Notes: a model not told the origin generated them from the sequence alone. Counted from the stretch's first letter, positions 21,836 through 62,612 are shown. The stretch: 64,000 bases of DNA from Rickettsia typhi (GCA_945872855.1 CAMCAW010000001.1:4108-68107), one strand, 5' to 3'. Numbers and translations are program-made.

Positions 21836-22423
21836 ATGTCCAATAAATCAAAAAAAACAAAAGAAGCTTGGGCAAAATTTTTATGCGATTATGTGCCGTT
21901 GATAATTTTTATTATTATTTATAAATTCTCTCCTGCTTCCGATCCTTTAATACCAGCTACTTTCGGCCTTTTAGTTTCAAGTTTTATAGCGCTAATTATC
22001 GCTTATATTCTCACTAGAAAAATTGCCAAAATGCCATTAATTTCGGCTATAATTTTAGGAGTTTTTGGGGGCCTCACGCTAATTTCTGGCGATGATTTAT
22101 TTATCAAAATTAAACCAACTTTAATCAATTTATTATTCGCGGCAATTTTGTTTTATGGATATTTTTCAAAGAAGCCTCTAATCAAGCATTTGTTCGGTGA
22201 AAGCCTGAAAATGGAGGATCGCGCTTGGTTAATTTTGTCTTTGCGTTGGGCAATATTTTTTATTTTTCTCGCAGTTTTAAACGAATTTATTTGGCGTAGT
22301 TTTTCAACTGATTTTTGGGTAAATTTCAAAGTATTTGGCGTATTTCCAATCTCAATGATTTTTACGCTTTCGCAAGTGCCATTCATGATTAAAAATATAA
22401 AAGGGAAGGGCGATGCCTCATGA
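21836..22423 (+). CDS. yciB: intracellular septation protein A (YciB/IspZ)
   Basis: VFGGLTLISGDDLFIKIKPTLINLLFA...KKPLIKHLFG...FWVNFKVFGVFP, collinear with the YciB family. Confidence 0.88.
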   Translation: MSNKSKKTKEAWAKFLCDYVPLIIFIIIYKFSPASDPLIPATFGLLVSSFIALIIAYILTRKIAKMPLISAIILGVFGGLTLISGDDLFIKIKPTLINLLFAAILFYGYFSKKPLIKHLFGESLKMEDRAWLILSLRWAIFFIFLAVLNEFIWRSFSTDFWVNFKVFGVFPISMIFTLSQVPFMIKNIKGKGDAS

Positions 22424-23330
22424 TTTTCTCTCCAACGAACAAAAAGGCGTTCTTTGCGTAATCGCTTCTGGCTTACTATATGGCCTTCTCGGCTATTTTG
22501 GCATGACAATAATCGCTGAAGGTTTTTCGCGTTATAACATGCTTTTTTGGCGCTTTTCTGTTGCCAGCATTTTCATGCTTTTCATCATCTCACCCAAAAT
22601 AAAAACCCTCTCTGAGAGTCCTCGAGAAGTTCTCAAAATGTTTTTCTTTGGCGCTATATTTCATGGTGTTGCGGTTATCCTCTATTTCACCTCTGCGATC
22701 TATGTAGGCACTGGCATTGCGATGGTTTTATTTTTTCTTTATCCAGTTATCGTAATACTTTTGAATCGCGTATTTTATCATACAAAAATCAGCAAAACTT
22801 ATTATTATTCAATCTCGCTAATCCTTCTGGGCCTAGTGCTCCTAATTGATATTACAAATTTAAATCTCAATATTTTTGGTATTGTAATTGGAATTCTTGA
22901 TGCAGTTTTTTATGCGCTTTATGTCGTTGCAAGCAAGAATAGCAAGCTCTCATCGGTCTTAGCAACTTTTGCAATGGTGCTTGGTTGCGTTCTTACTACA
23001 TTTATTTTTTCTGTCTTCGATAGCAGCTTTCAAGTGCCGACAACTTTCGCTTTGTGGCTTAATGTAGTCACCATGGGCGTGCTCTGCACAGCTTTGCCAA
23101 TTTTATTTTTCTTGAAGGGTTTGCAATATATCGATTCAGCGAAAGTTTCAATATTGGGCGTTACCGAGCCGCTGGCTGTAATGTTTTTCAGCTATATTTT
23201 GTTGGGAGAAAGAATGACTCTATTACAGTTTTGTGGCGCGATGTCAATTTTGTTTGGCGCAGTAATGGTGCTGAATCCGCTCAAGGCCTTAAATTCTTTT
23301 AGAAACCGCAATCGCAAATTTCGTGGTTAG
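22413..23330 (+). CDS. DMT-superfamily (EamA) transporter
   Basis: 305 aa, ten TM helices, two EamA-like halves. Overlaps the yciB stop by 11 nt. Confidence 0.8.
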   Translation: MPHDFLSNEQKGVLCVIASGLLYGLLGYFGMTIIAEGFSRYNMLFWRFSVASIFMLFIISPKIKTLSESPREVLKMFFFGAIFHGVAVILYFTSAIYVGTGIAMVLFFLYPVIVILLNRVFYHTKISKTYYYSISLILLGLVLLIDITNLNLNIFGIVIGILDAVFYALYVVASKNSKLSSVLATFAMVLGCVLTTFIFSVFDSSFQVPTTFALWLNVVTMGVLCTALPILFFLKGLQYIDSAKVSILGVTEPLAVMFFSYILLGERMTLLQFCGAMSILFGAVMVLNPLKALNSFRNRNRKFRG

Positions 23331-23846: not shown

Positions 23847-24101
23847 GATTCTTTACTTAATTATTGCTTAAACATTGTTTCAACAACCTATTTTTATACA
23901 AGAGGAACTTGCTGTCGACGGCACAATTTCTTGTCAATTATCGTCCGCATGAAATTGTTAATCGAAAAGGCTGCAAATATTTCTAGGCACGATAAGTCAA
24001 AAATATTCGAAACGCTTATAGAAGGCGGCGGAGCCTTTGTCCATAACCAACCCTAAAAGCTTGGATAGATTTGCGGCTTATAAGCACAAAACAATAGCCC
24101 A

Positions 24102-24638: not shown

Positions 24639-25136
24639 ATGAATAAAACAAAAATTGCAATCTATCCAGGAACTTTTGATCCGATCACTTTTGGGCATCT
24701 CGATATTATCAAACGCGCCAGTGAATTTATTGATCATTTGGTGATTGCTGTCGCTAAAGACACCGCCAAGAATCCTTTATTCACGCTGGCAGAAAGGGTT
24801 GAGCTGGTAGAAGATGAGGTAGCAAATTTGGGCAGCGATACAAAAATTTCGGTTGAGCAATTTGAAGGATTGCTAGTAGATTTTGCTGTAAAAAAAGGTG
24901 CACGACTAATTATTCGCGGTCTGCGCGCCGTTTCTGATTTTGAATATGAATTTCAAATGTTCGGCATGAATGCAAAATTAAATCCCGAAATTCAAACAAT
25001 ATTTTTGCCTGCCTCAGAAAATAATCATTTTATCGCATCGAAGTTCGTAAAAGAAGTGGCGCGGCTTGGCGGCGATGTTACAAATTTTGTTTCGCCTTAC
25101 GTGGTAAAAAAACTTAAGGAAAAAATGAAAATTTAA
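24639..25136 (+). CDS. coaD: phosphopantetheine adenylyltransferase
   Basis: AIYPGTFDPITFGHLDII nucleotidyltransferase motif. 165 aa. Confidence 0.95.
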   Translation: MNKTKIAIYPGTFDPITFGHLDIIKRASEFIDHLVIAVAKDTAKNPLFTLAERVELVEDEVANLGSDTKISVEQFEGLLVDFAVKKGARLIIRGLRAVSDFEYEFQMFGMNAKLNPEIQTIFLPASENNHFIASKFVKEVARLGGDVTNFVSPYVVKKLKEKMKI

Positions 25137-25303
25137 AAGTTAAGTTAGAAAAAAGTTAAGTGAAAATATGATAAAAAAGAATTCTCGACTATCTTAGTCT
25201 CGCCCCTAGACGGCACGCCGAAGCGGGGCGAGACTAAGATAGTCGAGAATTCTTTTTTATCATATTTTCACTTAACTTTTTTCTAACTTAACTTTTAAAT
25301 TTT
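25128..25303. repeat. 176-bp perfect palindrome (79-bp arms, 18-nt loop TAGACGGCACGCCGAAGC); member 1 of a conserved-loop long-hairpin family
   Basis: I checked base by base that 25128-25206 is the exact reverse complement of 25225-25303. The loop is 25207-25224. The left arm overlaps the last 9 nt of coaD, including its stop codon. Confidence 0.95.
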
Positions 25304-36373: not shown

Positions 36374-36411
36374 AAAAAACGGGACCCAATTTATTTTGCG
36401 TCCCGTTTTTT
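36374..36411 (+). terminator. Rho-independent terminator after rpmB
   Basis: acgggac (36379-36385) pairs with gtcccgt (36400-36406). An A-run lies upstream and tttttt (36406-36411) downstream. Confidence 0.72.
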
Positions 36412-48187: not shown

Positions 48188-48268
48188 ATTAACAGGCTTG
48201 CTCGAATAACGTGCGAATCAAAGACCGAAGTATTTCTTTTTGATAGTTCGCAGAACTTCAATTATAAA

Positions 48269-48682
48269 TGTAAGGCAAGCTATAAGCCGGATTTTGTACT
48301 GTTTGCACAGCAATGATCATTCGTCTAGGACCAGCGTCGCCACTGGCCTCAAGCAACCTACCCGGATGACAACTCAAAGACAAGTCTGCATATTGCTATG
48401 CGCGCCATCCCTATTTGGTCTTGCTCCTAGCGGGGTTTTTCGAGATGCATGTTACCATGCAAAGCGGTGAGCTCTTACCTCGCCTTTTCACCCTTACCGC
48501 CGGCGTTTAAAGGCAGGCGGCGGTATATTCTCTGTGACACTTTCCCTCCACAAGCCCTATATATTCAAGCTTGCAGGCCAGCTCTTAACTGGTGCTATTT
48601 CCTTGCGGAGTCCGGACTTTCCTCTTATTTTCATCGCCATTTTGCAATAGCGAAAAACAAGCGACCATCCACTTGCCTTACA
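48269..48682 (-). ncRNA. rnpB: RNase P RNA (bacterial type A)
   Basis: The minus strand reads ...AAGAGGAAAGTCCGGACTCCGCAAGG... (CR-I), AGGGTGAAAAGGCGAGGTAAGAGCTCACC, and ACAAAATCCGGCTTATAGCTTGCCTTACA at the 3' end. The P1 helix is GTAAGGCAAGT (5') pairing with AGCTTGCCTTAC (3'). The region is locally GC-rich and has no credible CDS. Confidence 0.9.
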
Positions 48683-48832: not shown

Positions 48833-49999
48833 ATGAAAACGGTTTTATCAGGAATTCAGCCTTCTGGCAATTTGCATTTGGGCAATTATTTGGGATCTAT
48901 CCGCAACTGGATTGGCTTGCAAGATTCGCATCGCTGTTTGTTTGGGGTGATGAATTTGCACGCGATCACGGTGGCTCAAGATCCGCTTGTGTTGCGGCAA
49001 AATATTTTTGATGCGGCGGCGGTTTATTTGGCTTGCGGGTTAGATCCGAAGAAGGCGAGTATTTTTGTGCAGGGGGAAGTGCGTGAGCATGTAGAGTTGG
49101 CGTGGGTTCTTGGGTGTTTAACGCCGATGGGGTGGTTGGATAGAATGACGCAGTTTAAGGATAAAACCAGTATTTCAAATACGTTGGAAAATGCAATTAC
49201 AAAGTCACCTAAAAGTGTTTATAATTTATTTGAATCTTGCTATAAAGAATTAAAACAAGAAGAAGGTTTTAAGCAATTAAAATTGAGCGATGATTACATA
49301 GCTAAGTTGGATAAAGGTGGATTTTTTGAGATTTTAGTAAAAATTTTAGAAGATTCTCGACGTGATCAAGCGCATCTTGGCCTCTACTCCTACCCCGTTC
49401 TAATGGCCGCCGATATTCTACTTTACCACGCAGATCTCGTGCCTGTCGGTGAAGACCAAAAACAGCATCTCGAGCTTACGCGCGACTTAGCTGGTGCTTT
49501 CAACCGCCGCTACAAAACAGAATATTTCAAACTGCCCGAGCCCATGATTCTCAAGGACACAAAGCGCATCATGTCCCTTCAAGACGGCACCAAAAAAATG
49601 TCGAAATCCGATGAATCCGATCTCTCGCGCATCAACCTTGAAGACGCGCCAGAGTTGATTGTAAAGAAGGTGAAAAAGGCCAAAACCGATTCTCTCACCG
49701 AAATTTCTTACGACGAAAATCGCCCCGAAATTTACAACTTACTCAACATCTTCGCCAGCATGTCAGGCAGGCTTCCGCAGGCTATCGCCGAAGAATATAA
49801 AACCGCAGGAAACGGCAAATTTAAAGGCGATCTCGCAGAAATTATAGTTGAAAATTTGCGTCCAATCCAAGATAATCTGGTGCGCTTCAAGCAAGATAGC
49901 GGCTTTATCGCTAATGTTTTGCGGCAAGGCCAAGAAGATGCGACAAAAATTGCCAGCAAAACTCGCCAAGAAGTTTTTAAATTGGTTGGGTTAATTTAG
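48833..49999 (+). CDS. trpS: tryptophan--tRNA ligase (with a ~60-aa internal insertion)
   Basis: PSGNLHLGNY (HIGH-type), YPVLMAADILLY, VPVGEDQKQHLELTRD, KMSKS. 388 aa versus the ~330 typical. Confidence 0.93.
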   Translation: MKTVLSGIQPSGNLHLGNYLGSIRNWIGLQDSHRCLFGVMNLHAITVAQDPLVLRQNIFDAAAVYLACGLDPKKASIFVQGEVREHVELAWVLGCLTPMGWLDRMTQFKDKTSISNTLENAITKSPKSVYNLFESCYKELKQEEGFKQLKLSDDYIAKLDKGGFFEILVKILEDSRRDQAHLGLYSYPVLMAADILLYHADLVPVGEDQKQHLELTRDLAGAFNRRYKTEYFKLPEPMILKDTKRIMSLQDGTKKMSKSDESDLSRINLEDAPELIVKKVKKAKTDSLTEISYDENRPEIYNLLNIFASMSGRLPQAIAEEYKTAGNGKFKGDLAEIIVENLRPIQDNLVRFKQDSGFIANVLRQGQEDATKIASKTRQEVFKLVGLI

Positions 50000-50106
50000 T
50001 TGCTTAACAGCTTGCTGGCGTTGAGTTTGTAGCATAAATAATATAGCCTTACTAGCGCGATTCACAGTATAAAAGTTAATAAGTTTGCAAAGTTCTTAAT
50101 CCAAAA

Positions 50107-51093
50107 ATGCCATTTTCCAATAAAACACAAAACCTCTCCGATGCCGATTTAGTCAAGGAAATCGCGCGTTTGAAGCAAGAGCAAAATGCCGTAATTTTGG
50201 CGCATTTTTATCAAGATGAAGCAATTCAAGATATTGCAGATTTCGTTGGCGATTCACTAGACCTATCGCGCAAGGCTGCCGCTACTGATGCCGATGTGAT
50301 TGTATTTTGCGGCGTAAAATTTATGGCTGAAGTTGCAAAAATTTTATCGCCAAGCAAGAAGGTTTTGATTCCCGATTTTAAGGCGGGCTGCAGTTTGGAA
50401 GAATCTTGTCCGCCAGCGCAGTTCGCGGCTTTCAAGCAGCAGCATCTCGATGCGATTGTTGTCACTTACATCAATTGTTCTGCTGAAATTAAGGCGCTTT
50501 CTGATATAATTGTTACTTCAACTAACGCCAAAAAAATCATCGATCAAATTCCATTATCGCAAAAAATTATTTTTGCGCCAGATCAACATCTCGGTCGCTA
50601 CCTCAATAAAATCACGGGTCGCAACATGATTTTGTGGCATGGCAGTTGTATTGTTCACGAGCAATTCAGCGAGAAAGAATTGGTGAAGTTGATGGCGAAT
50701 CATCCGCAAGCCTTGGTAATAGCGCATCCTGAATGCCCTGAGAATTTGTTGGCGCATGCGCATCACATTGGCTCTACTTCATCGCTAATTAACTTTGCGC
50801 AAGATCGTCAAGGCGGCGAGTTTATTGTGTTGACCGAGCCGCATATTATTCACCAAATGCGGCAAAAAAATCCTAGCGCAAAATTTTACGATTGTCCCTT
50901 TGTAGACAAAGCTGGCTGTAGCCTTTGCAACACTTGCCCTTATATGGGATTGAATAGTTTGGAGAAGATTTATTTGGTGATGAAAAATAGCGCAGAAGGT
51001 GCGTTGAATAAGGTTGGCGGCGAGTTAGCGCTAGATGAAGCCTTGCGTTTGAAGGCTGAGAGACCATTGCGCAAGATGCTTGAGATGTCGTAG
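50107..51093 (+). CDS. nadA: quinolinate synthase
   Basis: [26 protein letters not shown]. Cys ligands in SCIVHE / CPYM contexts. 328 aa. Confidence 0.93.
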
Positions 51094-51099
51094 GTTTTT

Positions 51100-51233
51100 A
51101 AAATTCGAAATTGAAATTATTAAATAAAGTCTGCCTTATCTTACTTAGTTCAAGCCCTAGACGGCACGCCGAAGCGGGTTTGAACTAAGTAAGATAAGGC
51201 AGACTTTACTTAATAATTTCAATCTAGAATTTT
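51100..51233. repeat. 134-bp long hairpin (58-bp arms, 4 non-Watson-Crick positions) with loop TAGACGGCACGCCGAAGC; family member 2
   Basis: 51100-51157 pairs with 51176-51233. The exceptions are 51107/51226, 51109/51224, 51124/51209 and a G-T at 51154/51179. The loop (51158-51175) is identical to the loop at 25207-25224. The element fills the spacer between convergent nadA and the GNAT gene. Confidence 0.92.
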
Positions 51234-51794
51234 CTAAGTTAAGAATTCTTCGCGCAAAATACTAAACATATAAACATCAACCAACTTGCCACGATGGTAG
51301 CGGTGTTGGCGCAAGCAGCCTTCATATTTAAATCCGCATTTTTCTAGCAGGCGCACCGAAGCTTCGTTGTAAGTTGAGGTTACGGCTTCAATACGGTTTA
51401 TCGCCATCACTTTAAATCCGTAGCGCAATAATTCGAGCACAGCTTTTGTCATAATGCCGCGACGCCAATATTCTTGCGCCATATCATAGCTAAGTTCAAT
51501 GCGATTGTGATAGGTATTGTGCGAGCTAAAGCCGATTGAGCCAATCATACTATCGTCTTTTTTGTCAGCGATGGCGAAGTAAATTCCGTCATTATTATAG
51601 AAAACATTGCGCCAATAATAAAGCTCGCGACGCGCGTCTTCTAAGCTTTGCGGCACTTCGGTAAGGATATATTTATTAACTTCGGGGTCGGTGTAATATT
51701 TAAAAAAATCAGGCACGTCTTTATCTTGTTGTTCGCGCAAAACAAACTCGCCAAGATCGATTATTGGAAAAATTTTATTTGTAGATGGATACAT
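51234..51794 (-). CDS. GNAT-family N-acetyltransferase (RimJ/RimL-like)
   Basis: 186 aa; acetyl-CoA-binding region YWRRGIMTKAV. Typical RimJ-like length. Confidence 0.8.
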   Translation of the reverse strand: MYPSTNKIFPIIDLGEFVLREQQDKDVPDFFKYYTDPEVNKYILTEVPQSLEDARRELYYWRNVFYNNDGIYFAIADKKDDSMIGSIGFSSHNTYHNRIELSYDMAQEYWRRGIMTKAVLELLRYGFKVMAINRIEAVTSTYNEASVRLLEKCGFKYEGCLRQHRYHRGKLVDVYMFSILREEFLT

Positions 51795-51858
51795 TTTTTT
51801 GCGAATATTTCAGTTGAAGAAGTGAAAATTTTACAGAGATAATTTTTGTAATTAAGAA

Positions 51859-52788
51859 TTATCCTGCCAATAAATTTTTTGTAAAATTTGCAGCATTAAA
51901 TTCTTGTAAATCTTCAATTTTTTCGCCAATGCCAATAGCATAAAGCGGAATTTTATATTGATCAGCAAGAGCCACAACGATACCGCCTTTAGCAGAGCCG
52001 TCAAGCTTAGTGATTACTAGGCCGGTGATGCCTACAATTTGATGGAAAATCTCGAGTTGATTCTTGGCATTTTGCCCAATTGTGCCATCAAGAATTAACA
52101 GATTTTCATGCGGCGCAGAGGCGTCGATTTTTTTTATAACGGTGTTAATTTTTTTCAATTCATCCATTAAATTTTGTTTATTTTGCAAGCGGCCCGCAGT
52201 GTCGATTAATAGAATATCGAAGCTATTTTTTTGCGCATAATCAAAGGCGCGGAAGGCAACGGCGGCAGGGTCTTCACCATCTTTCAAGGCAGAAATTATT
52301 TCGCAATTACTACGCTTCGCCCAAATTTCTAACTGCTCAGAAGCTGCGGCCCTGAAGGTGTCGCAAGCGGCGATGAGAATTTTTTTATTTTGCCCAGATA
52401 AATTAAAAGCAATTTTTCCGATAGTAGTAGTTTTGCCAACTCCATTAATTCCGTTAAAAATTATCACGCGCGGCTTAATCGAATTATTCAATGCCAGAGC
52501 CTTCTCGCAAGGTTTTAAAATTTCAATTATCTCTTCTGCAAGAAAATTTTTTATCTCATTTTCACTAATATTTTTCTCGAATTTTTTATTACGTAACTTC
52601 TGTACAATTTTTGCGCTAACCTCAACGCCAATATCGCTATTGATTAAAATTTCCTCCAAATCATCAAGAATTTCTGCGGCAATTTTTTTATGCGTAAAAA
52701 TTTGCGTAATAGCCTGCGTAAGTTTGCCAGACGTGCCTTTGAGTTGATCGGTGATTTTTGACTTTGAGAAGAAGCTGAAGAAAGACAT
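51859..52788 (-). CDS. ftsY: signal recognition particle receptor FtsY
   Basis: GINGVGKTTTIGK (G1), LIDTAGRL (G3), VITKLDGSAKGG (G4). Confidence 0.93.
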   Translation of the reverse strand: MSFFSFFSKSKITDQLKGTSGKLTQAITQIFTHKKIAAEILDDLEEILINSDIGVEVSAKIVQKLRNKKFEKNISENEIKNFLAEEIIEILKPCEKALALNNSIKPRVIIFNGINGVGKTTTIGKIAFNLSGQNKKILIAACDTFRAAASEQLEIWAKRSNCEIISALKDGEDPAAVAFRAFDYAQKNSFDILLIDTAGRLQNKQNLMDELKKINTVIKKIDASAPHENLLILDGTIGQNAKNQLEIFHQIVGITGLVITKLDGSAKGGIVVALADQYKIPLYAIGIGEKIEDLQEFNAANFTKNLLAG

Positions 52789-54296
52789 TAACGAATATTT
52801 ATTTTTTCACAGGCGCGAATCAATGCCTGAGCCTTATTAATACATTCCTGATATTCTGATTTTGGATCAGAATCGAAAACCACGCCAGCCCCAGCTTGCA
52901 GATAAATTTTTCCATCTTTAATTAGCGCTGACCTTAGAGTGATGCAGGTTTCCATGTCGCCATTGCTTGCAAAATATCCCACGCAACCAGCATAAAAACT
53001 GCGTTTTACTTTTTCGATTTCTTCAATAATTTCCATGGCGCGAATTTTTGGCGCACCGCTCACCGTGCCAGCAGGGAAGCCGCTAATCAAGGCATCGAGC
53101 GCGTCTAAATCTTCGCGTAATTCGCCCTCAACATTCGATGAAATATGCATTACATGCGAATAATATTCGATCACCATTTTTTCTGTAACCTTCACCGTGC
53201 CAGCTTTGGCAACGCGCCCCACATCGTGGCGGCCAAGATCGATTAACATTAAATGTTCGGCAATTTCTTTTTCATCGCGCAATAATTCTGTGGCAATTTT
53301 GTGATCTTTTTCAAGATCGCCATCGCGTTTTCTAGTGCCCGCAAGTGGCCTGATTGTAACTTTGTGATTCTTGCTCGAAACCATAATTTCAGGGCTTGAG
53401 CCAGTTAAAACGAAGTCATTGAATTTTAAGAAAAACAAAAAAGGCGAGGGGTTAACCGAGCGCAGCGAGCGATAAAATGAAAATTCAGAAATGGCTGGGA
53501 AGGCGCTGGTGAAGCGTTGCGAAGGCAATACTTGAAAAATATCTCCGCCCTTAATGTAGGTTTTTGCTTTTTCTACCGCATCGCAAAATTCTTTTTCTTG
53601 ATAATTTGAGGAGAAATTAAACTTTAGCGAATGGGCTTCAGGCGAGGCTTCATAAGGCTCGCGCAAAATATTTTCAATCGTAGAAATTTTTGCAACTAAC
53701 TCTTCATAAGATTTATTTTGCCCATTAAAAACTGGCGCACAAATCAAAGCGCAGTCAAAAAAATTATCGAAAATAATTAAGATTTGTGGACGAATAAAGA
53801 CGCTATCAGGAATTTTAAAATCATCGCGCAAACCCTTATCTGGCAAGCTTTCCATCAATCTTCCCATGTCGTAACCAAGATAGCCAAAAATTCCTGCGGC
53901 AATTCCCTGTAACGCAATTTTATCGTAATTTAGTGTGTTAAAATTTTCGATTTGCGATTTGTTAATTAATGTGCGCAACTCCGAAAGAGGCTCTCCCGCT
54001 TGCTTCGTGAAAGATTCACGATTGCGAGAAAAATCTTCATTAATAAAAGATTCTGCGCCAACGCACTTCCACACTAAATCGGGATCAAGCCCAATCACTG
54101 AAAATCTACCTTTATTATTGCCGCCATTTTTATTATTTTCGGCAGATTCAAACAAAAAATGGTAATCGGTAAAATGCTTGAAAAGCTTGAGACTAGCGAG
54201 CACGGGCGTGATTATATCCGTTGGAATTTTCTTAAAAAGAACGGTTCCTAACGGAGCAATTTCGGCAAATTTTGTTTTATCAAGATTGTAAGTCAT
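52788..54296 (-). CDS. trpE: anthranilate synthase component I family (TrpE; PabB not excluded)
   Basis: LFESAE...RFSVIGLDP N-terminal motif. GTRKRD; FPAGTVSGAPKIRAMEIIEE; YAGCVGYF. Confidence 0.78.
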   Translation of the reverse strand: MTYNLDKTKFAEIAPLGTVLFKKIPTDIITPVLASLKLFKHFTDYHFLFESAENNKNGGNNKGRFSVIGLDPDLVWKCVGAESFINEDFSRNRESFTKQAGEPLSELRTLINKSQIENFNTLNYDKIALQGIAAGIFGYLGYDMGRLMESLPDKGLRDDFKIPDSVFIRPQILIIFDNFFDCALICAPVFNGQNKSYEELVAKISTIENILREPYEASPEAHSLKFNFSSNYQEKEFCDAVEKAKTYIKGGDIFQVLPSQRFTSAFPAISEFSFYRSLRSVNPSPFLFFLKFNDFVLTGSSPEIMVSSKNHKVTIRPLAGTRKRDGDLEKDHKIATELLRDEKEIAEHLMLIDLGRHDVGRVAKAGTVKVTEKMVIEYYSHVMHISSNVEGELREDLDALDALISGFPAGTVSGAPKIRAMEIIEEIEKVKRSFYAGCVGYFASNGDMETCITLRSALIKDGKIYLQAGAGVVFDSDPKSEYQECINKAQALIRACEKINIR

Positions 54297-54299
54297 CGA

Positions 54300-56228
54300 T
54301 TATTTTTGTTCTTGTTTTTCTGTTGCGCCCAAGAATTTTTCATTCACTTTTATCGGATATTTCTTTTGCAAAAACTTATTAAATTCTTGCATAAATTCTG
54401 CGCGATGATTTTTTTCTAACTCTGATTTGCCTAGAGCTAGTTGGCTTTCGGTTATTGGAGATTTTTTGATTTCACGCAATATTCCAATATTAAATTCTTG
54501 CGCACTAACTGCTGATGCAGGAATTATTTGCCCAACTTTTGCACTAAATAATCCTTCTAAAAAAGCGCTAGAATAAGGGATTTTTTTGCCTTGAAATTCA
54601 AGATAAAAAAAGCGCGGGAAGATTTTATTTTTCTCAACTTTAAGATGGTATTGAGCCGCTATTTGCAAAGCTATAGAAGGTTTTTGTGCGATTTCAGTAG
54701 AAAATTTTGTAGCTAATTCGCGCAATTTTTCTAGCTTTTTTTCTTTTACATAGGCTGAAGTAATTTCTGATTTTACTTCATCTAATTTTTTCTCACGAGC
54801 CTTCTCAATTTCGTCGATTTTTAAAGCATAAAAAACACCAGTTAATTCGGCATAATAAAGTTTAGAAACCTGCTTTTCTTGTAATGAATAAGCGTTCTTA
54901 GAAAAATCGCCTAACTCTTTGATAGAAGGCACTGCGGCGCCTTTTGTATCATGGCCATTTTGATCAATTGTAACAACATCATGAGTTTTTAAGTTGAATT
55001 TTTTTGCAGTCTCAGAAAGTGAATTTGAAGCAAGGAGAGAATCTTCAATTTCAGAGATTTTTTTCTGCACAAATTCTTCATTTTTTGTGCGCAAAAGATT
55101 TTGCTTTATCGCATTTTTTACTTCTGCTAAAGGCGTAATTCCGCCAGCCTTTATATCATTAACAAAGAAAATATGAAAACCAAGCGGGCTTTTTAAAGCA
55201 GCTGAAACCTCGTGTTTATTGAGTTTGAAGGCTCCTACAGCAATTTCAGGAAATAAATCTTTTTCGCTAATATTTTGCAAAGTAATTTCCTTTTGATTTT
55301 TATGAGCCAATTTTTTTGCCATTTCTGCAAAAGATTTCGCTTTATCTTTATCGCTAGATTTTTCTAGTGCAGCCAAGAATAAAGCAGCCTTATCTTCATC
55401 AGTAAAAACCACGTGATAAAAATTTCTTTTCTCAGCTTGTTGATAGTTAGCTTTGTTTTTTTCATATTCAGCAGCGATCTCTTGCTCAGTGATGGCAAGG
55501 CTTCGCGCTAGATCTTGCTGTCCAATTGTAACGTAAGAAATTTTGCGCATTTCAGGTGTAACAAACTTTTGTTTATTTTTTGTGAAGAATGCTTCAAGTT
55601 CGGCAGTGCTTGGGGCTGTAATGTTGCCAACGTCTTTATCGGAAATAATAATTACGTCTGCTGCTCTTTTTTCTTCTTTTAAAGATACGACTTTTTTAAC
55701 TAATTTTTCATCGATAGGAGAGGCGAGAGAGATCGAGTTTACTATCATCGCGCCAACAATTTCATCTTGCACGGCTTTCACATATTTCTCTTCGTCAAAG
55801 CCATTTTGCGCGAGAAAACTTTTGAAAGCGAGGCGATCAAACTTGCCATCATGCATGAATTGAGGGTCTGTGGCGATGCCTTCGAGAATGATTTTTCTGC
55901 TGGCTTCAATGCCAAAATCGTCGCGCAATTTTTCTGTGATTACTTGATTTACAAGGCGTCCCAGCACGTCAGACTTAAATTTTTCTGATTCAAGATATTG
56001 CATTGCTTGCGGATTCTGTGGATTTGCGCGCAAAATTGCCTCGCGATCAACTTGCATTGCTTTAGTTAATCTTCCATAAGAAATTGATTTTCCGCCAACC
56101 TTGGCAACCCAAGAGTCGGCGCTGTTTAAGACGAAATTGCTAACACCAAAAAAGGTGAATGACAATACCAAAAGTCCGATGAAAAATTTGAAAAAAAGGT
56201 TATGTGCAAGTTTTTTGATTCTAAGCAT
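54300..56228 (-). CDS. periplasmic chaperone / peptidyl-prolyl isomerase PpiD-like (SurA-N domain protein)
   Basis: N-terminal TM anchor, SurA_N-like region, a parvulin-like segment (FYHVVF...SPLGFHIFFV). 642 aa. Confidence 0.78.
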   Translation of the reverse strand: MLRIKKLAHNLFFKFFIGLLVLSFTFFGVSNFVLNSADSWVAKVGGKSISYGRLTKAMQVDREAILRANPQNPQAMQYLESEKFKSDVLGRLVNQVITEKLRDDFGIEASRKIILEGIATDPQFMHDGKFDRLAFKSFLAQNGFDEEKYVKAVQDEIVGAMIVNSISLASPIDEKLVKKVVSLKEEKRAADVIIISDKDVGNITAPSTAELEAFFTKNKQKFVTPEMRKISYVTIGQQDLARSLAITEQEIAAEYEKNKANYQQAEKRNFYHVVFTDEDKAALFLAALEKSSDKDKAKSFAEMAKKLAHKNQKEITLQNISEKDLFPEIAVGAFKLNKHEVSAALKSPLGFHIFFVNDIKAGGITPLAEVKNAIKQNLLRTKNEEFVQKKISEIEDSLLASNSLSETAKKFNLKTHDVVTIDQNGHDTKGAAVPSIKELGDFSKNAYSLQEKQVSKLYYAELTGVFYALKIDEIEKAREKKLDEVKSEITSAYVKEKKLEKLRELATKFSTEIAQKPSIALQIAAQYHLKVEKNKIFPRFFYLEFQGKKIPYSSAFLEGLFSAKVGQIIPASAVSAQEFNIGILREIKKSPITESQLALGKSELEKNHRAEFMQEFNKFLQKKYPIKVNEKFLGATEKQEQK

Positions 56229-56297
56229 TTTTAAGAAATTTGGTTGAGAAAATATCGCCTAAAGTTACTTAAGCCTTTCTTTCTTAGCAATTCTTTC

Positions 56298-56326
56298 TTG
56301 TAAAAAAGAAGTGCGCATGCTACAAT
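56298..56326 (+). promoter_or_regulatory. candidate sigma70-type promoter for lysC
   Basis: TTGTAA (56298-56303), 17-bp spacer, TACAAT (56321-56326). Lies about 75 nt upstream of the ATG. Confidence 0.35.
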
Positions 56327-56400
56327 CTCTATGTTTTTGAGGATTTGCCGCGTCTAAAATTGGCACCTTTAAATAAAAGTTCTTAATAAAACTTCCAAAA

Positions 56401-57645
56401 ATGGCTCTTATTGTTCAAAAGTTTGGTGGCACCTCGGTTGGTGATATTGCGCGCATTCAAAATGTGGCGAAAAAAGTCAAAGCTGAACTTGATAAAAAAA
56501 ACCAAGTAATTGTTGTTGTTTCAGCAATGTCGGGCGTTACAAACCAGCTGGTGAGTTATTGTAATGAAGTTTCGGCCTTGATGAGCGATGAATCTCTGGC
56601 AGAATATGACGCCGTTATTGCCAGCGGCGAGCAAATCACCTGCGGCCTTCTGGCGCTTGAGTTGCAGAGCATGGGCTATCAAGCTCGTTCTTTCTTGGGC
56701 TGGCAAATTCCTGTGGTCACCGATGACGTCCACAGTAAGGCGCGCATCGATGAAATTGACGGAAAATTTTTGTTGGAAGCGCTAAAAACGCATCACGTTA
56801 TTGTGATTGCGGGCTTTCAGGGTGTGAATCAGGCCACTAATCGCGTTACCACGCTTGGTCGTGGCGGGTCAGACACTTCAGCTGTGGCAATTGCCGCTGC
56901 GGTTAAGGCTGATTTATGCGATATTTACACAGATGTAGATGGCGTGTACACTACAGACCCGCGCATTACAGACAGGGCGTGCAAGCTCAATAAAATCGCT
57001 TACGAAGAAATGTTGGAGATGGCTTATAGCGGCTCGAAAGTGCTGCAAACTCGCTCTGTTGCTATGGCGATGTCGCATAATGTGCGAGTGCGTGTGCTTT
57101 CAAGTTTTCAGGAAGTTACAGAAAATTCGGGAACAATTTTGGTTAATAATGAGGAGGAAATCATGGAAAGACGAGTTATCACAGGAATTAGTTATAGCAA
57201 AAATGATGTTAGAATTACTCTATCGCGCATGCCTGATCATCCCGGCCTCTCGGCGTCAATATTTGGCGTGCTGGCGAAAAAAGAGGTGAACATCGATATG
57301 ATTGTGCAAAATGCTAGTGCCGATGGCAAATCTGTCGATATAACTTTCACAACTTCTAAAGATGAGCTAGAGCGTGCTAAGGCTGCACTTGATTCCGTCA
57401 AAAATGAAGTGAAATATGAGCAAATTTCAATTGATGAAAATGTTGCGAAAATTTCAGTGATTGGCGTTGGTATGGTTTCGCACTCTGGTGTGGCTCATAC
57501 TATGTTTAAAACTCTTGCAGATAAAGGAATCAACATTTTGGTGATTTCAACTTCTGAGATTAAAATTTCGGTTTTGATTGCGAGAGAATACGGTGAACTT
57601 GCGGTTCGCGTGCTTCATACTGCTTACGGATTAGATAAGCAGTAA
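56401..57645 (+). CDS. lysC: aspartate kinase
   Basis: VQKFGGTSVGD, VVVVSAMSGVTN, two C-terminal ACT-like regions. 414 aa. Confidence 0.93.
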   Translation: MALIVQKFGGTSVGDIARIQNVAKKVKAELDKKNQVIVVVSAMSGVTNQLVSYCNEVSALMSDESLAEYDAVIASGEQITCGLLALELQSMGYQARSFLGWQIPVVTDDVHSKARIDEIDGKFLLEALKTHHVIVIAGFQGVNQATNRVTTLGRGGSDTSAVAIAAAVKADLCDIYTDVDGVYTTDPRITDRACKLNKIAYEEMLEMAYSGSKVLQTRSVAMAMSHNVRVRVLSSFQEVTENSGTILVNNEEEIMERRVITGISYSKNDVRITLSRMPDHPGLSASIFGVLAKKEVNIDMIVQNASADGKSVDITFTTSKDELERAKAALDSVKNEVKYEQISIDENVAKISVIGVGMVSHSGVAHTMFKTLADKGINILVISTSEIKISVLIAREYGELAVRVLHTAYGLDKQ

Positions 57646-57656
57646 CTTTAAGTTGG

Positions 57657-57813
57657 GTGTAAAACTTTTAAGAATGTTAATTAAATTTCTCTTAAGTTTA
57701 TAATTCTCTCTTGCCTTACTCGCCCCTCTTCGGCGTGCCGTCTAGGGGGGCAAGGCAGAGAGAGAATTATAAACTTAAGAGAAATTTAATTAACATTCTT
57801 AAAAGTTTTACAC
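57657..57813. repeat. 157-bp long hairpin (54-bp perfect outer arms) with loop TCTTCGGCGTGCCGTCTA, the reverse complement of TAGACGGCACGCCGAAGA; family member 3, inverted orientation
   Basis: 57657-57710 is the exact reverse complement of 57760-57813. The inner stem is imperfect: tgcctt/aaggca and cccc/gggg helices separated by an asymmetric bulge. The loop is 57727-57744. Confidence 0.92.
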
Positions 57814-57845
57814 TGGCTTTTTAATTGTTTTAATAAAAAAATATT

Positions 57846-59513
57846 ATGCCGACTTTAACAAAATTCATAGAATTAGGAATTTCAGATACAATGATCGAAA
57901 CCTTGCGTAAGAAGGGTTTTGAAGAGCCTACTCCTATTCAAGCGAAGACGATCCCATTTTTACTTGCCAACAAAAAAGATTTAATCGGTAAGGCGCAAAC
58001 TGGAACAGGAAAAACTGCCGCCTTCGGCATTCCACTAATTGAAAATATCGTTACTAACCAAGGCAAGGTTCAGGCCTTAATTTTGGCCCCAACTCGCGAA
58101 TTGGCTATTCAAGTTACAGAAGAGTTGAGCTCTTTTGCTGGTGCGTTTCAAACTAAAATTATTTCGATTTATGGTGGCCAGCCGATCGATCGTCAAATTT
58201 CGCGCTTGCAGCGTGGGGTTGATATTGTGGTAGGAACGCCCGGTCGCGTGATTGATCACTTGAACCGCAAGACGCTAGATATTTCAAAAATCTCTTACAT
58301 CGTGCTTGATGAAGCTGATGAAATGTTGAATATGGGTTTCATTGAAGATATCGAAGCGATTTTGAAATTGGCTCCTAAAGCTAAGCGCACAGTGCTTTTC
58401 TCGGCTACTATGCCAGATCATATCGAGCGTTTGGCGAAGAAATATATGGGCGATTATGAATTGATTTCGGTGATGAGTAACAATGCTGGGCGTCCGAATA
58501 TTGAGCAAATTTATTTCGAAGTTCCGCAATCAGATAAATTTGAAGCTTTACACAGAATTATTGATGTGGAAGAAAGTTTTTATGGCATGGTTTTTTGTCG
58601 CACCAAAGTTGATGTTGATGAAATTGCTAGCAAGCTAACCAACCGTGGCTTTAGAGCCGAAACGCTTCACGGCGATTTGTCTCAAGGTCAAAGAGAGAAA
58701 GTTTTGCAGAAATTTCGCAATAAAAAAGTGAACATCCTTGTGGCGACAGACGTTGCGGCGCGCGGGCTTGATGTTGATGATTTAACTCACGTTATCAATT
58801 ATGCTTTGCCGCAAGATCCAGAAAGTTACATGCATAGAATTGGCCGTACAGGCAGAGCTGGCAAGAGTGGAACGGCTATCACGCTGATCACTCCTTCTGA
58901 GTATCGCAAGTTGATTTCTATTCAAAAAATGGCTAATGCAACAATCACTAAACAAAAAGTGCCGAATGTAAAAGACGTTATTGATAGCAAAAAACAGCGC
59001 ATCATGACTTCTATCATCAAGGCTATGGAAGATGGCGGTTTTGCCGATTTACAAGGCATTGCAGCCGAAATTTTAGCGAGCAATTCTGATCCAAAAATTG
59101 CTCTTGCAGCTTTGTTGAAAATTGCTTTCAAAAATGAACTTAGTGAAAGTAGTTATAGTGAAATTGGCGATGGCTCTAACAAAAAACGCGACCGCGATTA
59201 TAATTCTTATGATGAACGTGGCGGCAACAGCGATCGTGGTGGCGATAAAAGAGGTGGTTATGTTGATCGCAAGGGAACGGCGCGCCTCTTCATTGCTAAG
59301 GGTCGCAACGATGGAATGGATCCAAGAAAATTGGTTGATTTTATTCAGAAAGAAACCGGCGTTGATCAAAGAAAAATTGATGATGCGAAAGTTTTTGATT
59401 CATTTTCGTTTTTTGCAGTACCATTTCAAGATGCAGAAAATATTCTGCATGTCTTTCAAAAGAGTGCTGGCGGCAGCAGATCGCTGGTTTCTAGAGCTAA
59501 AGATAAGAAATAG
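57846..59513 (+). CDS. DEAD-box ATP-dependent RNA helicase (DeaD/CsdA-like with DbpA-type C-terminal domain)
   Basis: AQTGTGKT, DEAD (VLDEADEM), SAT, HRIGRTGRAG. RGG/D-rich linker and a C-terminal RNA-binding-like domain. Confidence 0.92.
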   Translation: MPTLTKFIELGISDTMIETLRKKGFEEPTPIQAKTIPFLLANKKDLIGKAQTGTGKTAAFGIPLIENIVTNQGKVQALILAPTRELAIQVTEELSSFAGAFQTKIISIYGGQPIDRQISRLQRGVDIVVGTPGRVIDHLNRKTLDISKISYIVLDEADEMLNMGFIEDIEAILKLAPKAKRTVLFSATMPDHIERLAKKYMGDYELISVMSNNAGRPNIEQIYFEVPQSDKFEALHRIIDVEESFYGMVFCRTKVDVDEIASKLTNRGFRAETLHGDLSQGQREKVLQKFRNKKVNILVATDVAARGLDVDDLTHVINYALPQDPESYMHRIGRTGRAGKSGTAITLITPSEYRKLISIQKMANATITKQKVPNVKDVIDSKKQRIMTSIIKAMEDGGFADLQGIAAEILASNSDPKIALAALLKIAFKNELSESSYSEIGDGSNKKRDRDYNSYDERGGNSDRGGDKRGGYVDRKGTARLFIAKGRNDGMDPRKLVDFIQKETGVDQRKIDDAKVFDSFSFFAVPFQDAENILHVFQKSAGGSRSLVSRAKDKK

Positions 59514-59524
59514 GCTTTTAGTTC

Positions 59525-59548
59525 GGATTCCTGCGTAAGTGGGAATCC
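59525..59548 (+). terminator. possible terminator hairpin after the helicase gene
   Basis: ggattcc (59525-59531) pairs with ggaatcc (59542-59548). Only a weak T tract (aaatttta) follows. Confidence 0.3.
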
Positions 59549-59648
59549 AAATTTTATGGGGCAATCGCTTCTTAATTATCAGATCTTGGTTCGCTTAGCT
59601 GGTGATTAAGAAGCCGTTGTGGCAAATATCAAACGCTAAATACCTCCA

Positions 59649-61148
59649 ATGGTTTTCAGCTCCAACATCTTTCTATTCTTATTTCTCCCTTTAACTCTGG
59701 CGCTATATTTTTTGCCATTGGAAAAAATTGGCTTTGCAAAATATAAAAATTATTTATTACTCGCGACGAGTTTAATTTTTTATGCTTGGGGCGAGGCTTG
59801 CTACATCTGGCTTCTAGGGCTTTCTATTTTAGGAAATTATTATTTTGGGCGGTGGATTTCTTGCAAAAATCATGATGATGAAGTTGCAAAAATTTCAACG
59901 CAGCTACATCAAAGATCGCAATTTATATCTCGTCAAATTAAATTATTTATCGCGCTATCCTTCAATTTAGCGCTGCTGCTTTATTTTAAATATGCTAATT
60001 TTTTTGTGGCAAATTTATCTGATTTGGTGCATTTTTTATTTCCACAATATCAGTTTGCAGTGGCAAAATCTCTGCTTCCGGCCCGCCTTCCAATTGGCAT
60101 TTCATTTTTTACTTTTCACGCAATTTCTTGCCTCATCGATATTTATCGCAACAAATGCAAGGCGCAAAAAAATTTGTTGGAATTGGCGCTATATATTGCC
60201 TTTTTCCCCCAGTTAATTGCGGGGCCAATTGTGCGTTATAACACTATTGAGAAATATCTTTCCAAGCGGCGCCACAGCTTGTCTGCAGCCTCTTACGGCA
60301 TTAGAAGATTTATCATTGGTTTTGGCAAAAAAGTTATTATTGCAAATACTTTGGGAGAAGTTGCTGATACAATTTTTTCTACGCAGCTAGATGGCTTAAG
60401 CTCTACTCTTGCTTGGGTTGGAGTGTTATGCTATACCATGCAAATTTATTTCGATTTTTCTGGCTATTCTGATATGGCGATAGGATTGGCGCGGCTTTTT
60501 GGCTTTAAGTTTCCTGAAAATTTTAATTATCCTTACGCCTCAAGATCGATTAAAGAATTTTGGCGAAGATGGCACATGTCGCTCTCTGCTTGGTTTCGCG
60601 ACTATGTCTATATTCCACTTGGCGGCAATAAAGTTGGCTTAAGGAGACAATATTTTAATTTAGTTCTAGTGTTTTTTCTATGCGGCTTATGGCATGGTGC
60701 AAGCTGGAATTACGTGGTTTGGGGGCTTTTTCATGGCTTTTTCTTAGTGTTCGAAAGAGTGAGAATAGGAAAAATTTTTCTAGAAAAATTACCAAATTTT
60801 TTACAGCATTTTTACGCGATTTTTATAGTGATAATCGGCTGGGTATTTTTTCGCAGCCAAGATTTAAGCTATGCGATGGGCTATTTAGACCTAATGTTTT
60901 TTGGTGAAAATGATATTGTGATAGAAACTAAAATATTGCGCTTAGTAAATTCGCATTTTGTATGGGTTGTTGGCGCTCTAAGCTTAATTGGCTTTTCTCC
61001 TTTGGTTAAAAACGCCGTGACCGCATTAGTTAAACGTGGCGGAGCCCGCTTGTTGGCGTTTGATTTATTGCTATTGGCATCGTTTATTTTTGCAATTATC
61101 AGGCTTTCTTCCGCAACGCATAATCCGTTTATTTACTTTCAGTTTTAA
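59649..61148 (+). CDS. MBOAT-family membrane O-acyltransferase (AlgI/DltB-like)
   Basis: Polytopic, 499 aa. Conserved His region FWRRWHMSLSAWFRDYVYIPLGG. Confidence 0.85.
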   Translation: MVFSSNIFLFLFLPLTLALYFLPLEKIGFAKYKNYLLLATSLIFYAWGEACYIWLLGLSILGNYYFGRWISCKNHDDEVAKISTQLHQRSQFISRQIKLFIALSFNLALLLYFKYANFFVANLSDLVHFLFPQYQFAVAKSLLPARLPIGISFFTFHAISCLIDIYRNKCKAQKNLLELALYIAFFPQLIAGPIVRYNTIEKYLSKRRHSLSAASYGIRRFIIGFGKKVIIANTLGEVADTIFSTQLDGLSSTLAWVGVLCYTMQIYFDFSGYSDMAIGLARLFGFKFPENFNYPYASRSIKEFWRRWHMSLSAWFRDYVYIPLGGNKVGLRRQYFNLVLVFFLCGLWHGASWNYVVWGLFHGFFLVFERVRIGKIFLEKLPNFLQHFYAIFIVIIGWVFFRSQDLSYAMGYLDLMFFGENDIVIETKILRLVNSHFVWVVGALSLIGFSPLVKNAVTALVKRGGARLLAFDLLLLASFIFAIIRLSSATHNPFIYFQF

Positions 61149-62418
61149 GATAAATACTTTCAAGTTCTTCCTTTAAAAAGGCGAATTCGCTAGTTGCATC
61201 GCCGCTCATCAACTCTGTCAAAACCTTCGCCGAGCCGCAAGAGAGAGTCCATCCCAAATGTCCGTGCCCCGTATTTAAAAACAAATTGCCATAAATTTTA
61301 ACTTCGCCAATTAGTGGAATTGAATTGGGACGGAAGGGTCTAAAGCCAAACCATTCTTGCGCTTTATTGATATTGCCAAAATCGGAAAAACTAGCTTTGA
61401 TTTTTGCTTTGATGAAGTTGAGTTGGCTGTTGTTTTTAACGGCTCGCAACCCTCCAATCTCAACGGCTCCAGCTGCTCTGAAGACATCGCCAATTCTGCT
61501 GTAAACTATTTTATTTTCAGAATCGGTTAGGGCAATTGCTGGCGCGATAAATTCTTCATTTGCTTCAATTGAAAGGCTATGACCTTTAAGTGGATAAATT
61601 TTAGAAGTAACTCTAATGCCTTTCAAAAGCTTGTCGCCGTAAGCTCCAAGAGCATAAACATATTTATCAGCACAGAAAACGCCGCGATTAGTGTGAATGC
61701 CGGTGATTTTGCTGTAATTGGTGAAAATATTTTTTACCTCGGCATTATATTCAAAAACTACGCCATATTTTTCTTGGCAGATTTTTTCAAGAGCCTTAGT
61801 GAATAAAAGGCTGTTGCCGCTTGCGTCATCATCGTAAAAGATTCCGCCAAGCAATTTATTTTCATCGTAAAGTTTAACTAAGGTAGGCTCTTTTTTTAAG
61901 CATTCATCGCGATTTAAAATGTGAAGCTTAATGCCGAGCGACTGCTGTATTTCTGCGTGTTTAATGGCTTTTTCAAAGGCTTTGGCGTTTTGATAAAAGT
62001 GCAAAATTCCAGTTTCGTTATAATCGAATTTGATGTTTGGTTCGTCGCGCAAAATTTCTGCCAAGATTCTTCTGCTATATTTTCCGAGGCTGAATAGTTT
62101 TTTGCTATTGATGAGGGATTCTTCTGCGTTGCAATTTTTTAAAAACTCGAAGCCCCATTTTAAGAAATCGGTGTTGGCGAATTTTTTGATTGATAAAAAA
62201 GAATTGGGGCTGAAAAGTGATTTTGCGATGAGCTTTGGCGCCGATTCTGAGGCCCATGGTTCGATATGGGAGTAGCTCAATTGGCCGCCATTGGCGTATG
62301 AGCAGCCGAGGCTGGAGGCGGAGTTTTTTTCTAAAACTGTGACTTGATGACCTGATTTTGCGAGGAAATAAGCGGTTGTAACTCCGACCATTCCTGCGCC
62401 CATGACTATTATTTTCAT
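61129..62418 (-). CDS. dadA: D-amino-acid dehydrogenase (FAD-dependent)
   Basis: MKIIVMGAGMVGVTTAYFLAKSGHQVTVLEK, YPLKGHSLSI, FLNTGHGHLGWTLSCGSAKVL. The ATG at 62418 is preferred over the TTG at 62424. Confidence 0.85.
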   Translation of the reverse strand: MKIIVMGAGMVGVTTAYFLAKSGHQVTVLEKNSASSLGCSYANGGQLSYSHIEPWASESAPKLIAKSLFSPNSFLSIKKFANTDFLKWGFEFLKNCNAEESLINSKKLFSLGKYSRRILAEILRDEPNIKFDYNETGILHFYQNAKAFEKAIKHAEIQQSLGIKLHILNRDECLKKEPTLVKLYDENKLLGGIFYDDDASGNSLLFTKALEKICQEKYGVVFEYNAEVKNIFTNYSKITGIHTNRGVFCADKYVYALGAYGDKLLKGIRVTSKIYPLKGHSLSIEANEEFIAPAIALTDSENKIVYSRIGDVFRAAGAVEIGGLRAVKNNSQLNFIKAKIKASFSDFGNINKAQEWFGFRPFRPNSIPLIGEVKIYGNLFLNTGHGHLGWTLSCGSAKVLTELMSGDATSEFAFLKEELESIYLKTESK

Positions 62419-62456
62419 TTGCAAAAATCTGTTAATTGTGGGATAGTTTCCTCTTG

Positions 62457-62568
62457 GTTTGTAGAAGTGAGTGGATTATTTACCTGACTAAAATGTGTCA
62501 CGTTATGTCTCTGCAGGACACGCTGACGCATTTTGAGTTGGGTAAATAATCCACTCACTTCTACAAAC
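62457..62568. repeat. 112-nt long hairpin (28-bp perfect outer stem) in the divergent dadA/addB promoter region
   Basis: 62457-62484 (gtttgtagaagtgagtggattatttacc) is the exact reverse complement of 62541-62568. Imperfect pairing continues inward (aaaatgtgtca / tgacgcatttt; tgtc / gaca). The centre is unrelated to the TAGACGGCACGCCGAAG core. Confidence 0.9.
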
Positions 62569-62612
62569 TGAAACATCGCGAATATTCATTCAAAGTTAGC
62601 AGCATTTATCCA

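Follow-up and report, generated by a model that had tools for sequence, protein, structure and literature searches.

Several kinds of small palindromic intergenic repeat have been described in bacteria. [quoted passage not shown] The three long palindromes considered here lie in a 64,000-nt stretch of DNA (GCA_945872855.1, CAMCAW010000001.1:4108-68107; hereafter the window, meaning the whole stretch). They resemble Correia/NEMIS of Neisseria, ERIC/IRU of enterobacteria, and QMITE2 of Coxiella in their size (100-200 bp), non-coding and AT-rich sequence, whole-length inverted symmetry, dispersed intergenic or 3'-UTR copies, and presence or absence between relatives. They differ from these families in that conservation is lowest at the termini and highest in a 24-nt apical box, in that the arms are perfect or nearly so within a copy and 47-60% diverged between copies, and in that no clear target-site duplication or parent insertion sequence (IS) was seen. 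ERIC itself has a conserved central inverted repeat. The element is therefore of a known kind, a small palindromic intergenic repeat, with an unusual conservation pattern. On balance, we favor the view that it represents a new, lineage-specific family of MITE-like palindromes in which the arms are homogenized, diversified, and lengthened by hairpin-templated recopying while the apex is constrained.

Two further groups of hairpin repeats invite comparison. Rickettsia palindromic elements (RPEs) occur in the host's broad order and are alike in being palindromic and about 150 bp long. RPEs are conserved-sequence families that specify a conserved peptide and often lie inside open reading frames (ORFs) (PMC10969869), whereas the elements in the window are intergenic with unconserved arms. 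An RPE-like trait is that copy 1 rewrites the C-terminal codons of coaD in frame; it is the only copy that touches an ORF. Repetitive extragenic palindromic (REP) sequences and REPINs, with their REP-associated tyrosine transposases (RAYTs), are likewise hairpin-forming extragenic repeats at gene 3' ends for which a structure-specific enzyme is a plausible mobilizer. A REP is defined by a GTAG or GTGG tag located 0-2 nt 5' of the stem, a stem of 7-20 bp, and a loop of 2-5 nt, and its stem is conserved (PMC6006769). The 5' flanks of the three palindromes (..AAATG/AAAATT, ..GTTTTT/AAAATT, and ..GTTGG/GTGTAA, with a slash at the stem boundary) lack the tag at that position, and stems of 55-79 bp with an 18-nt apex lie outside the REP size range. 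The ssoA-type origins of rolling-circle plasmids are long imperfect hairpins (about 150-200 nt) with stems that vary from replicon to replicon; conservation is confined to short motifs, one of which (CS-6, TAGCGT-like) lies in the terminal loop, and these motifs are read on single-stranded DNA (ssDNA). This likeness is a lead only: the present elements are chromosomal and intergenic, are found without a rolling-circle replicon and in both orientations on one replichore, and carry a different motif.

Copy 1 (176 bp) has arms at 25128-25206 and 25225-25303 that are reverse complements at 79 of 79 positions around the 18-nt apex TAGACGGCACGCCGAAGC (25207-25224, plus strand), exactly as the original prediction, made from the sequence of the window, had described it. 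The same prediction placed this loop on top of two other hairpins, the third inverted and with one mismatch, and a window scan allowing up to 3 mismatches agreed, finding the 18-mer at 25207 (+), 51158 (+), and 57727 (-, one mismatch). Copy 2 (134 bp, 51100-51233) consists of 58-nt arms (51100-51157 and 51176-51233) that pair at 54 of 58 positions, the remaining four being mismatches, and an apex (51158-51175, plus strand) identical to that of copy 1. In copy 3 (157 bp, 57657-57813), the arm on the lysC side (57657-57726) and the arm on the side of a DEAD-box helicase gene (57745-57813) are perfectly complementary over the outer 55 nt and imperfect, with an indel, farther in; the apex TAGACGGCACGCCGAAGA (57727-57744) is on the minus strand and has one mismatch to that of copy 1. 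The arms are complementary from the outermost base in all three copies and so form terminal inverted repeats, and the near-perfect match of the arms within each copy (79/79, 54/58, and 55/55 for the outer arms of copy 3) was also as predicted. No ORF of at least 60-70 amino acids and no transposase gene lies inside any of the three palindromes, whose lengths fall within the range of about 50-500 bp for prokaryotic MITEs. As ssDNA, copy 1 is predicted to fold with -88.5 kcal/mol, compared with -16.2 +/- 2.9 in shuffled sequences (z = -25). The predicted fold of the apex consists of a 4x4 internal loop (TAGA/AAGC), a CGG/CCG mini-stem, and a CACG (or CGUG) tetraloop; the cUUCGg tetraloop that had been proposed is not used in it.

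The apical box shared by the family is 24 nt long, CCC-TAGACGGCACGCCGAAG-N-GGG (25204-25227 in copy 1), and quasi-symmetric (CCC-N4-CGG-N4-CCG-N4-GGG). The 18-mer within it occurs three times in 64 kb, compared with 0.05 times by chance, and none of 100 shuffles reached three; the string for a census of the apex on both strands, at up to 3 mismatches, is CCCTAGACGGCACGCCGAAGNGGG. When the full elements were aligned, the 25-nt stretch holding the box was identical between copies at 23-24 of 25 positions and the arm columns at 40-53%; given that arm identity, the conservation of the box has a probability of about 1e-6 to 1e-8. Across the copies, conservation falls from the apex to the inner arm and from there to the outer arm. 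Because the apex has no partner against which it could be corrected and is nonetheless nearly identical in three copies with nearly saturated arms, it must be either constrained or of recent origin. Most plausibly, it is constrained as the recognition module of a mobilizing or binding factor or as the nucleator of the fold. A near-identical strain sampled in run SRR36525879 shows 3 differences from the window over 1474 positions, two of which are adjacent in the copy 1 loop (25211-25212; positions 21-22 of contig L081) and change CG to TA. The resulting loop, TAGATAGC, has a weakened CGG/CCG mini-stem and contains AGATAG, as does the right arm. A templated origin of this change was considered and dropped, 30 of the 153 possible doublets being equally good (p about 0.2).

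Each palindrome as a whole is a lineage-specific insertion, placed in what was a very short spacer next to the 3' end of a gene. The comparison was made with sister species that have the same gene order (86% identity for the ELM1-like protein and 79-80% for the PpiD-like protein), two for each site, and none of them has a long hairpin at any of the three sites; a loop-like motif at up to 5 mismatches was likewise absent from about 85 kb of relatives. The spacer at site 1 is 182 bp here and 36 and 1 bp in the two sister species; at site 2, the lengths are 140 bp versus -6 (an overlap) and 8 bp, and at site 3, 200 bp versus 66 and 86 bp. Outside the palindromes, the spacers of the window measure only 15, 6, and 43 bp, respectively. 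When blastn-short was used to look for each arm in the window and in about 85 kb of sequence from relatives, the partner arm was the sole match, and the neighboring genes were unmatched. Since sites 1 and 2 had no ancestral spacer that could have supplied them, the 58-79-nt arms there cannot be copies of pre-existing flanking DNA. The tiny spacers of the sister species and the lack of matches to the arms elsewhere thus argue against an earlier proposal that a small core had copied flanking DNA into an inverted duplication. At site 3, the arms were compared with the 66- and 86-bp spacers of the relatives for an ancestral arm, and the high AT content left the alignments ambiguous. At most, the GTGT/ACAC at the outer ends of copy 3 may be a 4-nt extension into the flank, for which the presence of GTGTA at the same offset from the lysC stop codon in a sister species is only suggestive.

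All three palindromes begin 0-11 nt past a stop codon; a position just downstream of stop codons had also been predicted, together with the overlap of copy 1 with the stop of coaD. The final two codons of coaD and its stop codon (25128-25136) lie in the left arm of copy 1, and the right arm of that copy ends 15 nt before the ATG of an ELM1-family gene. Copy 2 begins 6 nt past the nadA stop and abuts, on its right, the stop codon of a convergent gene for a GNAT acetyltransferase. Copy 3 begins 11 nt past the lysC stop and ends 32 nt before the ATG of the DEAD-box helicase gene. The loops of copies 1, 2, and 3 are oriented +, +, and -, while the genes transcribing through copies 1 and 3 are all on the plus strand and the GC skew has a single sign across the window; the orientation of the loop therefore follows neither transcription nor replication.

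The near-perfect arms within each copy, despite the drift between copies, most likely result from repeated recopying of one arm from the other. With the copy 1 stem (79 pairs) as the reference, 93% of the cells across the three copies are paired, and changes of a stem pair are double-sided at 36 of the 79 pairs and single-sided at only 1, a ratio that none of 500 shuffles and no slid register approached. Each arm of copy 1 exceeds that of copy 2 by about 21 nt, a surplus that coincides with a tandem duplication of 16 nt (AAAAGTTAAGTTAGAA / AAAAGTTAAGTGAAAA; 25135-25166, p = 0.006) that is mirrored at 25265-25296; its units differ at 2 positions, and they do so identically in both arms. In copy 3, the outer arm is a 38-nt quasi-palindrome (57662-57699, within the lysC-side arm; p = 0.01) that is mirrored in the partner arm. 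The mirrored duplication and the mirrored sub-palindrome suggest that slippage or inversion arose in one arm and was transferred to its partner later. Template switching between the arms of inverted repeats is known to homogenize and expand the arms, to produce multi-base compensatory changes in one step, and to be able to invert the spacer (PMC8794818, PMC8604942, PMC13100816). Because the spacer can be inverted in this way, the reversed loop of copy 3 does not have to indicate the orientation in which that copy inserted. Maintenance by template switching, as in quasipalindrome correction, would account for the perfect arms, the compensatory changes, the mirrored indels, the expansion, and possibly the inversion of the spacer; however, it is a mutational process rather than a family of elements, and it leaves the insertions and the conserved apex unexplained. 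One of the explanations offered earlier was an RNA structure whose arms are homogenized by templating. Its templating part is upheld by the 36 double-sided changes versus 1 and by the mirrored duplication and sub-palindrome, whereas a loop-dependent RNA function is unlikely, given the opposite loop orientations of copies 1 and 3 and the absence of a terminator consensus.

The arms had been called non-homologous, which is too strong a description. The inner 30 nt or so are visibly homologous (AATTCTC.., TGCCTTA, and CTCGCCCC), and copies 1 and 3 are similar over their whole arms (p < 0.001 in a block shuffle that preserves the gradient). In pairwise comparisons without an anchor, the outer arms are at background. 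Aligned from their first base, the outermost 30 nt of copies 1 and 2 agree at 24 positions, with 2 gaps (p = 0.007 when compared with shuffled sequences and 0.001 when compared with genuine AT-rich 32-mers, in a test chosen post hoc); the corresponding alignment of copy 3 is marginal. Judging from these alignments, the outer arms appear at most faintly homologous, and "highly diverged" describes the arms better than "non-homologous".

The palindromes had not been recognized as a known family, and our searches are consistent with this: no hairpin matched Rfam 15 at the gathering score, the only matches being sub-threshold ones to generic long-hairpin (miRNA-precursor) models. An exact scan for the apex motif in 185,579 GTDB representative genomes gave 47 matches, all of them single, in coding sequence, and without a hairpin context. 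The exact scan of viral contigs gave 4 matches, none with a hairpin, and a blastn search with the core against plasmid and phage collections found nothing meaningful. Among 17 exact matches in metagenome contigs, a GC clamp surrounds the motif in only one contig, L063. This absence elsewhere is weak evidence, because the source genome is evidently not readable among the representative genomes and perfect palindromes break short-read contigs. Scans for terminator and promoter consensus sequences found none at the three elements, which have no U-tract and an AT-rich stem base. An intrinsic (Rho-independent) terminator, which needs a short GC-rich stem, a 3-8-nt loop, and a U-tract directly after it, was considered for them and rejected. 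No transposase, HUH/Y1, or reverse-transcriptase gene was found within the 64-kb window by Pfam searches of 20 ORFs and, for the rest, Pfam tags transferred through syntenic loci. The Pfam content of the window comprises only housekeeping functions, type IV secretion (TrbL/VirB6-like), two-partner secretion (ShlB/FhaC-type), and an Ulp1-like protease.

Contig L063 (JGI Ga0315277_10002973) is archaeal-looking and unrelated to the window, and it encodes TrpB2-like, sulfolactate-dehydrogenase-like, and PhoU-domain proteins. It carries the same 17-mer TAGACGGCACGCCGAAG at 2040-2100 on the minus strand, where the motif is closed by a perfect 6-bp clamp (CCGCCC/GGGCGG) and forms the tip of a hairpin; this hairpin is short and imperfect, and an ORF overlaps it with its 3' end. 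The probability of such a match by chance was estimated at roughly 0.3-3%.

In the MITE-like family that we favor, the GC clamp and the structured tip would nucleate a hairpin or cruciform. During replication, an intrastrand template switch across the hairpin could then copy one arm from the other, as in the correction of quasipalindromes, and a substitution, indel, or local duplication in an arm would be erased or mirrored. The arms would thereby stay perfect or nearly so within a copy while drifting and expanding until they became almost unalignable between copies, whereas the apex, having no partner for recopying, would be kept the same across copies by constraint. When transcribed, the elements would give rise to long double-stranded RNA (dsRNA) at the 3' ends of genes, which is probably a side effect.

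Several observations weigh against this interpretation. In classical MITEs, it is the termini rather than the center that are best conserved. The sample consists of the three copies visible in 64 kb, within which no parent IS or transposase is present. Unanchored pairwise local tests place the outer arms at background, the arms of copies 2 and 3 show no significant similarity, and such resemblance as the outer arms have between copies appears weak and partly post hoc. No target-site duplication was seen outside the arms and none was unambiguous; the ends of the palindromes are AT-rich and themselves palindromic (AAATTT, AATT, and TTAA), so that a short duplication is indistinguishable from the arms. 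The CG-to-TA change in the near-identical strain shows that the apex of copy 1 is mutable; this change may be an error in a low-coverage contig, or it could reflect hypermutability of the loop (two C-to-T deaminations, one per strand) or a templated change. A MITE-type model also leaves the apex and clamp of contig L063 unaccounted for.

The conservation gradient from the apex through the inner arm to the outer arm would also be expected if the hairpin were defined by its apex, which we regard as a minor possibility. What is inherited would then be the apical module, alone or together with one arm, and the second arm would be made by fold-back (self-primed) copying each time the element moves or is repaired; the tip would be recognized by a structure-specific enzyme, and the arms, perfect at birth and unconstrained in sequence, could randomize and grow. 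This would agree with the perfect arms of copy 1 (79/79) and outer arms of copy 3 (55/55) despite the 47-60% divergence between copies, with pair changes that are nearly all double-sided, and with the occurrence of the same apex and clamp in the unrelated contig L063. Two of the three strain differences fall in the loop, and the identity of the apices may accordingly reflect youth more than long-term selection. However, the window holds no candidate for the enzyme, the residual homology seen in the whole arms of copies 1 and 3, and likewise in the termini of copies 1 and 2, is more in keeping with descent with modification than with arms made de novo, and the 4 arm mismatches of copy 2 and the inner-arm indel of copy 3 are at odds with regenerated arms, for which we know of no bacterial precedent. 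It is unlikely that the palindromes are 3'-end structures selected by the host (a terminator, an RNase III site, an mRNA 3' stabilizer, or a site for a DNA-binding protein on the box) and retained for function rather than as selfish DNA. Their location 0-11 nt past stop codons, the strongly conserved apex, and the very stable RNA or DNA folds would suit such a role, and MITEs can be targets of RNase III or RNase E and can be terminator-like (PMC10969869). Nevertheless, the loop lies in opposite directions relative to transcription in copies 1 and 3, there is no U-tract and no terminator or promoter consensus, the sister species have no hairpin at the same three sites, and an ordinary short terminator-like hairpin occurs elsewhere in the window (36374-36411); in a compact genome, moreover, the spacers at gene 3' ends are where insertions are tolerated.

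An origin as REP/REPIN-like or IS200/IS605-derived elements, mobilized as ssDNA by a hairpin-recognizing HUH tyrosine (Y1) transposase or a RAYT, appears quite improbable, even though a hairpin repeat with both loop orientations and an intergenic 3'-end location would be compatible with it. CGTC occurs in the loop's complement and CTAG within the element; both recall the tetranucleotide tags of tagged palindromes and can serve only as a lead; GTAG- and CGTC-tagged repeats are cited in PMC6006769. By the same source, the lack of a GTAG or GTGG tag, stems of 55-79 rather than 7-20 bp, and a loop of 18 rather than 2-5 nt speak against this origin, as does the finding that Alphaproteobacteria, including Rickettsiales, carry no or few tnpA-Y1 homologs (PMC6006769); in addition, the window contains no Y1 or HUH gene. 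Artefacts of assembly or library preparation, that is, fold-back chimeras or an untrimmed hairpin adapter, have next to no probability, and the three palindromes are not assembly artefacts, although the original prediction had kept this alternative open. A constant center with variable, locally perfect arms does resemble an adapter artefact, and the assemblies at hand are all short-read; however, each palindrome bridges two different syntenic genes, and to our knowledge the apex loop matches no adapter sequence. In run ERR5863120, the ends or starts of Logan contigs fall precisely 30 nt inward from the outer edges of the arms, at 25157, 25274, 57686, and 57784. A true inverted repeat branches a k = 31 graph, the value that we take to apply to the Logan contig collection, and breaks 30 nt inside the arms are explained in this way; the independent k-mer graph thus branches exactly at all 4 of the arm edges tested. 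A contig from a different run (L081, SRR36525879) passes through the inner left arm, the loop, the whole right arm, and into the next gene at copy 1, and positions 49064-64000 of the window, copies 2 and 3 included, recur without a single difference in an ENA assembly made independently (L082, 86 kb). The contigs that break 30 nt inside perfect arms are L048, L080, L083, and L084.

With arms of up to 79 bp that form perfect interrupted palindromes and are unchanged across independent samples, these elements offer a natural case of palindrome maintenance. The 36 double-sided pair changes versus 1, together with the mirrored duplications, make them a clean bacterial example of maintenance and expansion by template switching. 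If the apex is the recognized part, the repeat family would be defined by its loop rather than by its termini, pointing to a protein specific for the tip of a hairpin; if the apex indeed defines the element, the box on the short hairpin of L063 would mark a horizontally mobile module with a structure-specific enzyme. Because the edges of the arms break k = 31 contigs, similar families may be systematically missing from metagenome-assembled genomes (MAGs) built from short reads, which would bias surveys of their distribution.

The window represents a compact, uncultured Rickettsiales-like genome of 34-43% GC, and the nearest named relatives are annotated "MAG: Rickettsiales bacterium". Its genes include housekeeping genes, two giant TrbL/VirB6-like ORFs, the gene for the Ulp1-like protease, and an RNase P RNA gene. 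A second palindromic insertion, unrelated to the three palindromes, is present at 62457-62568, within the divergent spacer between a gene of the D-amino-acid-oxidase family and a gene for an AddB-like nuclease; its 37-nt arms are 92% complementary and separated by a 38-nt spacer. Sister species lack this palindrome and have a shorter, operator-like inverted repeat instead (TGGATAAATGTTATAAC..), of which only the half on the ATG side, CATTTATCCA, remains in the window.

The spacer between COQ7 and rlmH (23847-24101) is 255 bp here and 3-12 bp in sister species, and it contains no hairpin or loop motif. An extra gene for an EamA-family transporter (22413-23330) lies between the IspA-family (PF04279) gene and COQ7. 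In a sister species, a gene for an IS1595-family transposase is located between EamA and PIF1-helicase genes (contig L070, 2672-3568); it is absent from the window. A tandem 30-nt repeat at 27501-27560, with 90% identity between its units, encodes a duplicated PPVASKVSFK in a 1921-aa TrbL/VirB6-like ORF. The short hairpin at 36374-36411, which has an A-run on one side and a T-run on the other (AAAAAACGGGACCCAA..TTGCGTCCCGTTTTTT), resembles an intrinsic terminator that works in both directions, and it provides a sample of the normal terminators of this genome. The only match in the window above the Rfam threshold was the bacterial class A RNase P RNA at 48267-48680 on the minus strand, which scored 258 bits.

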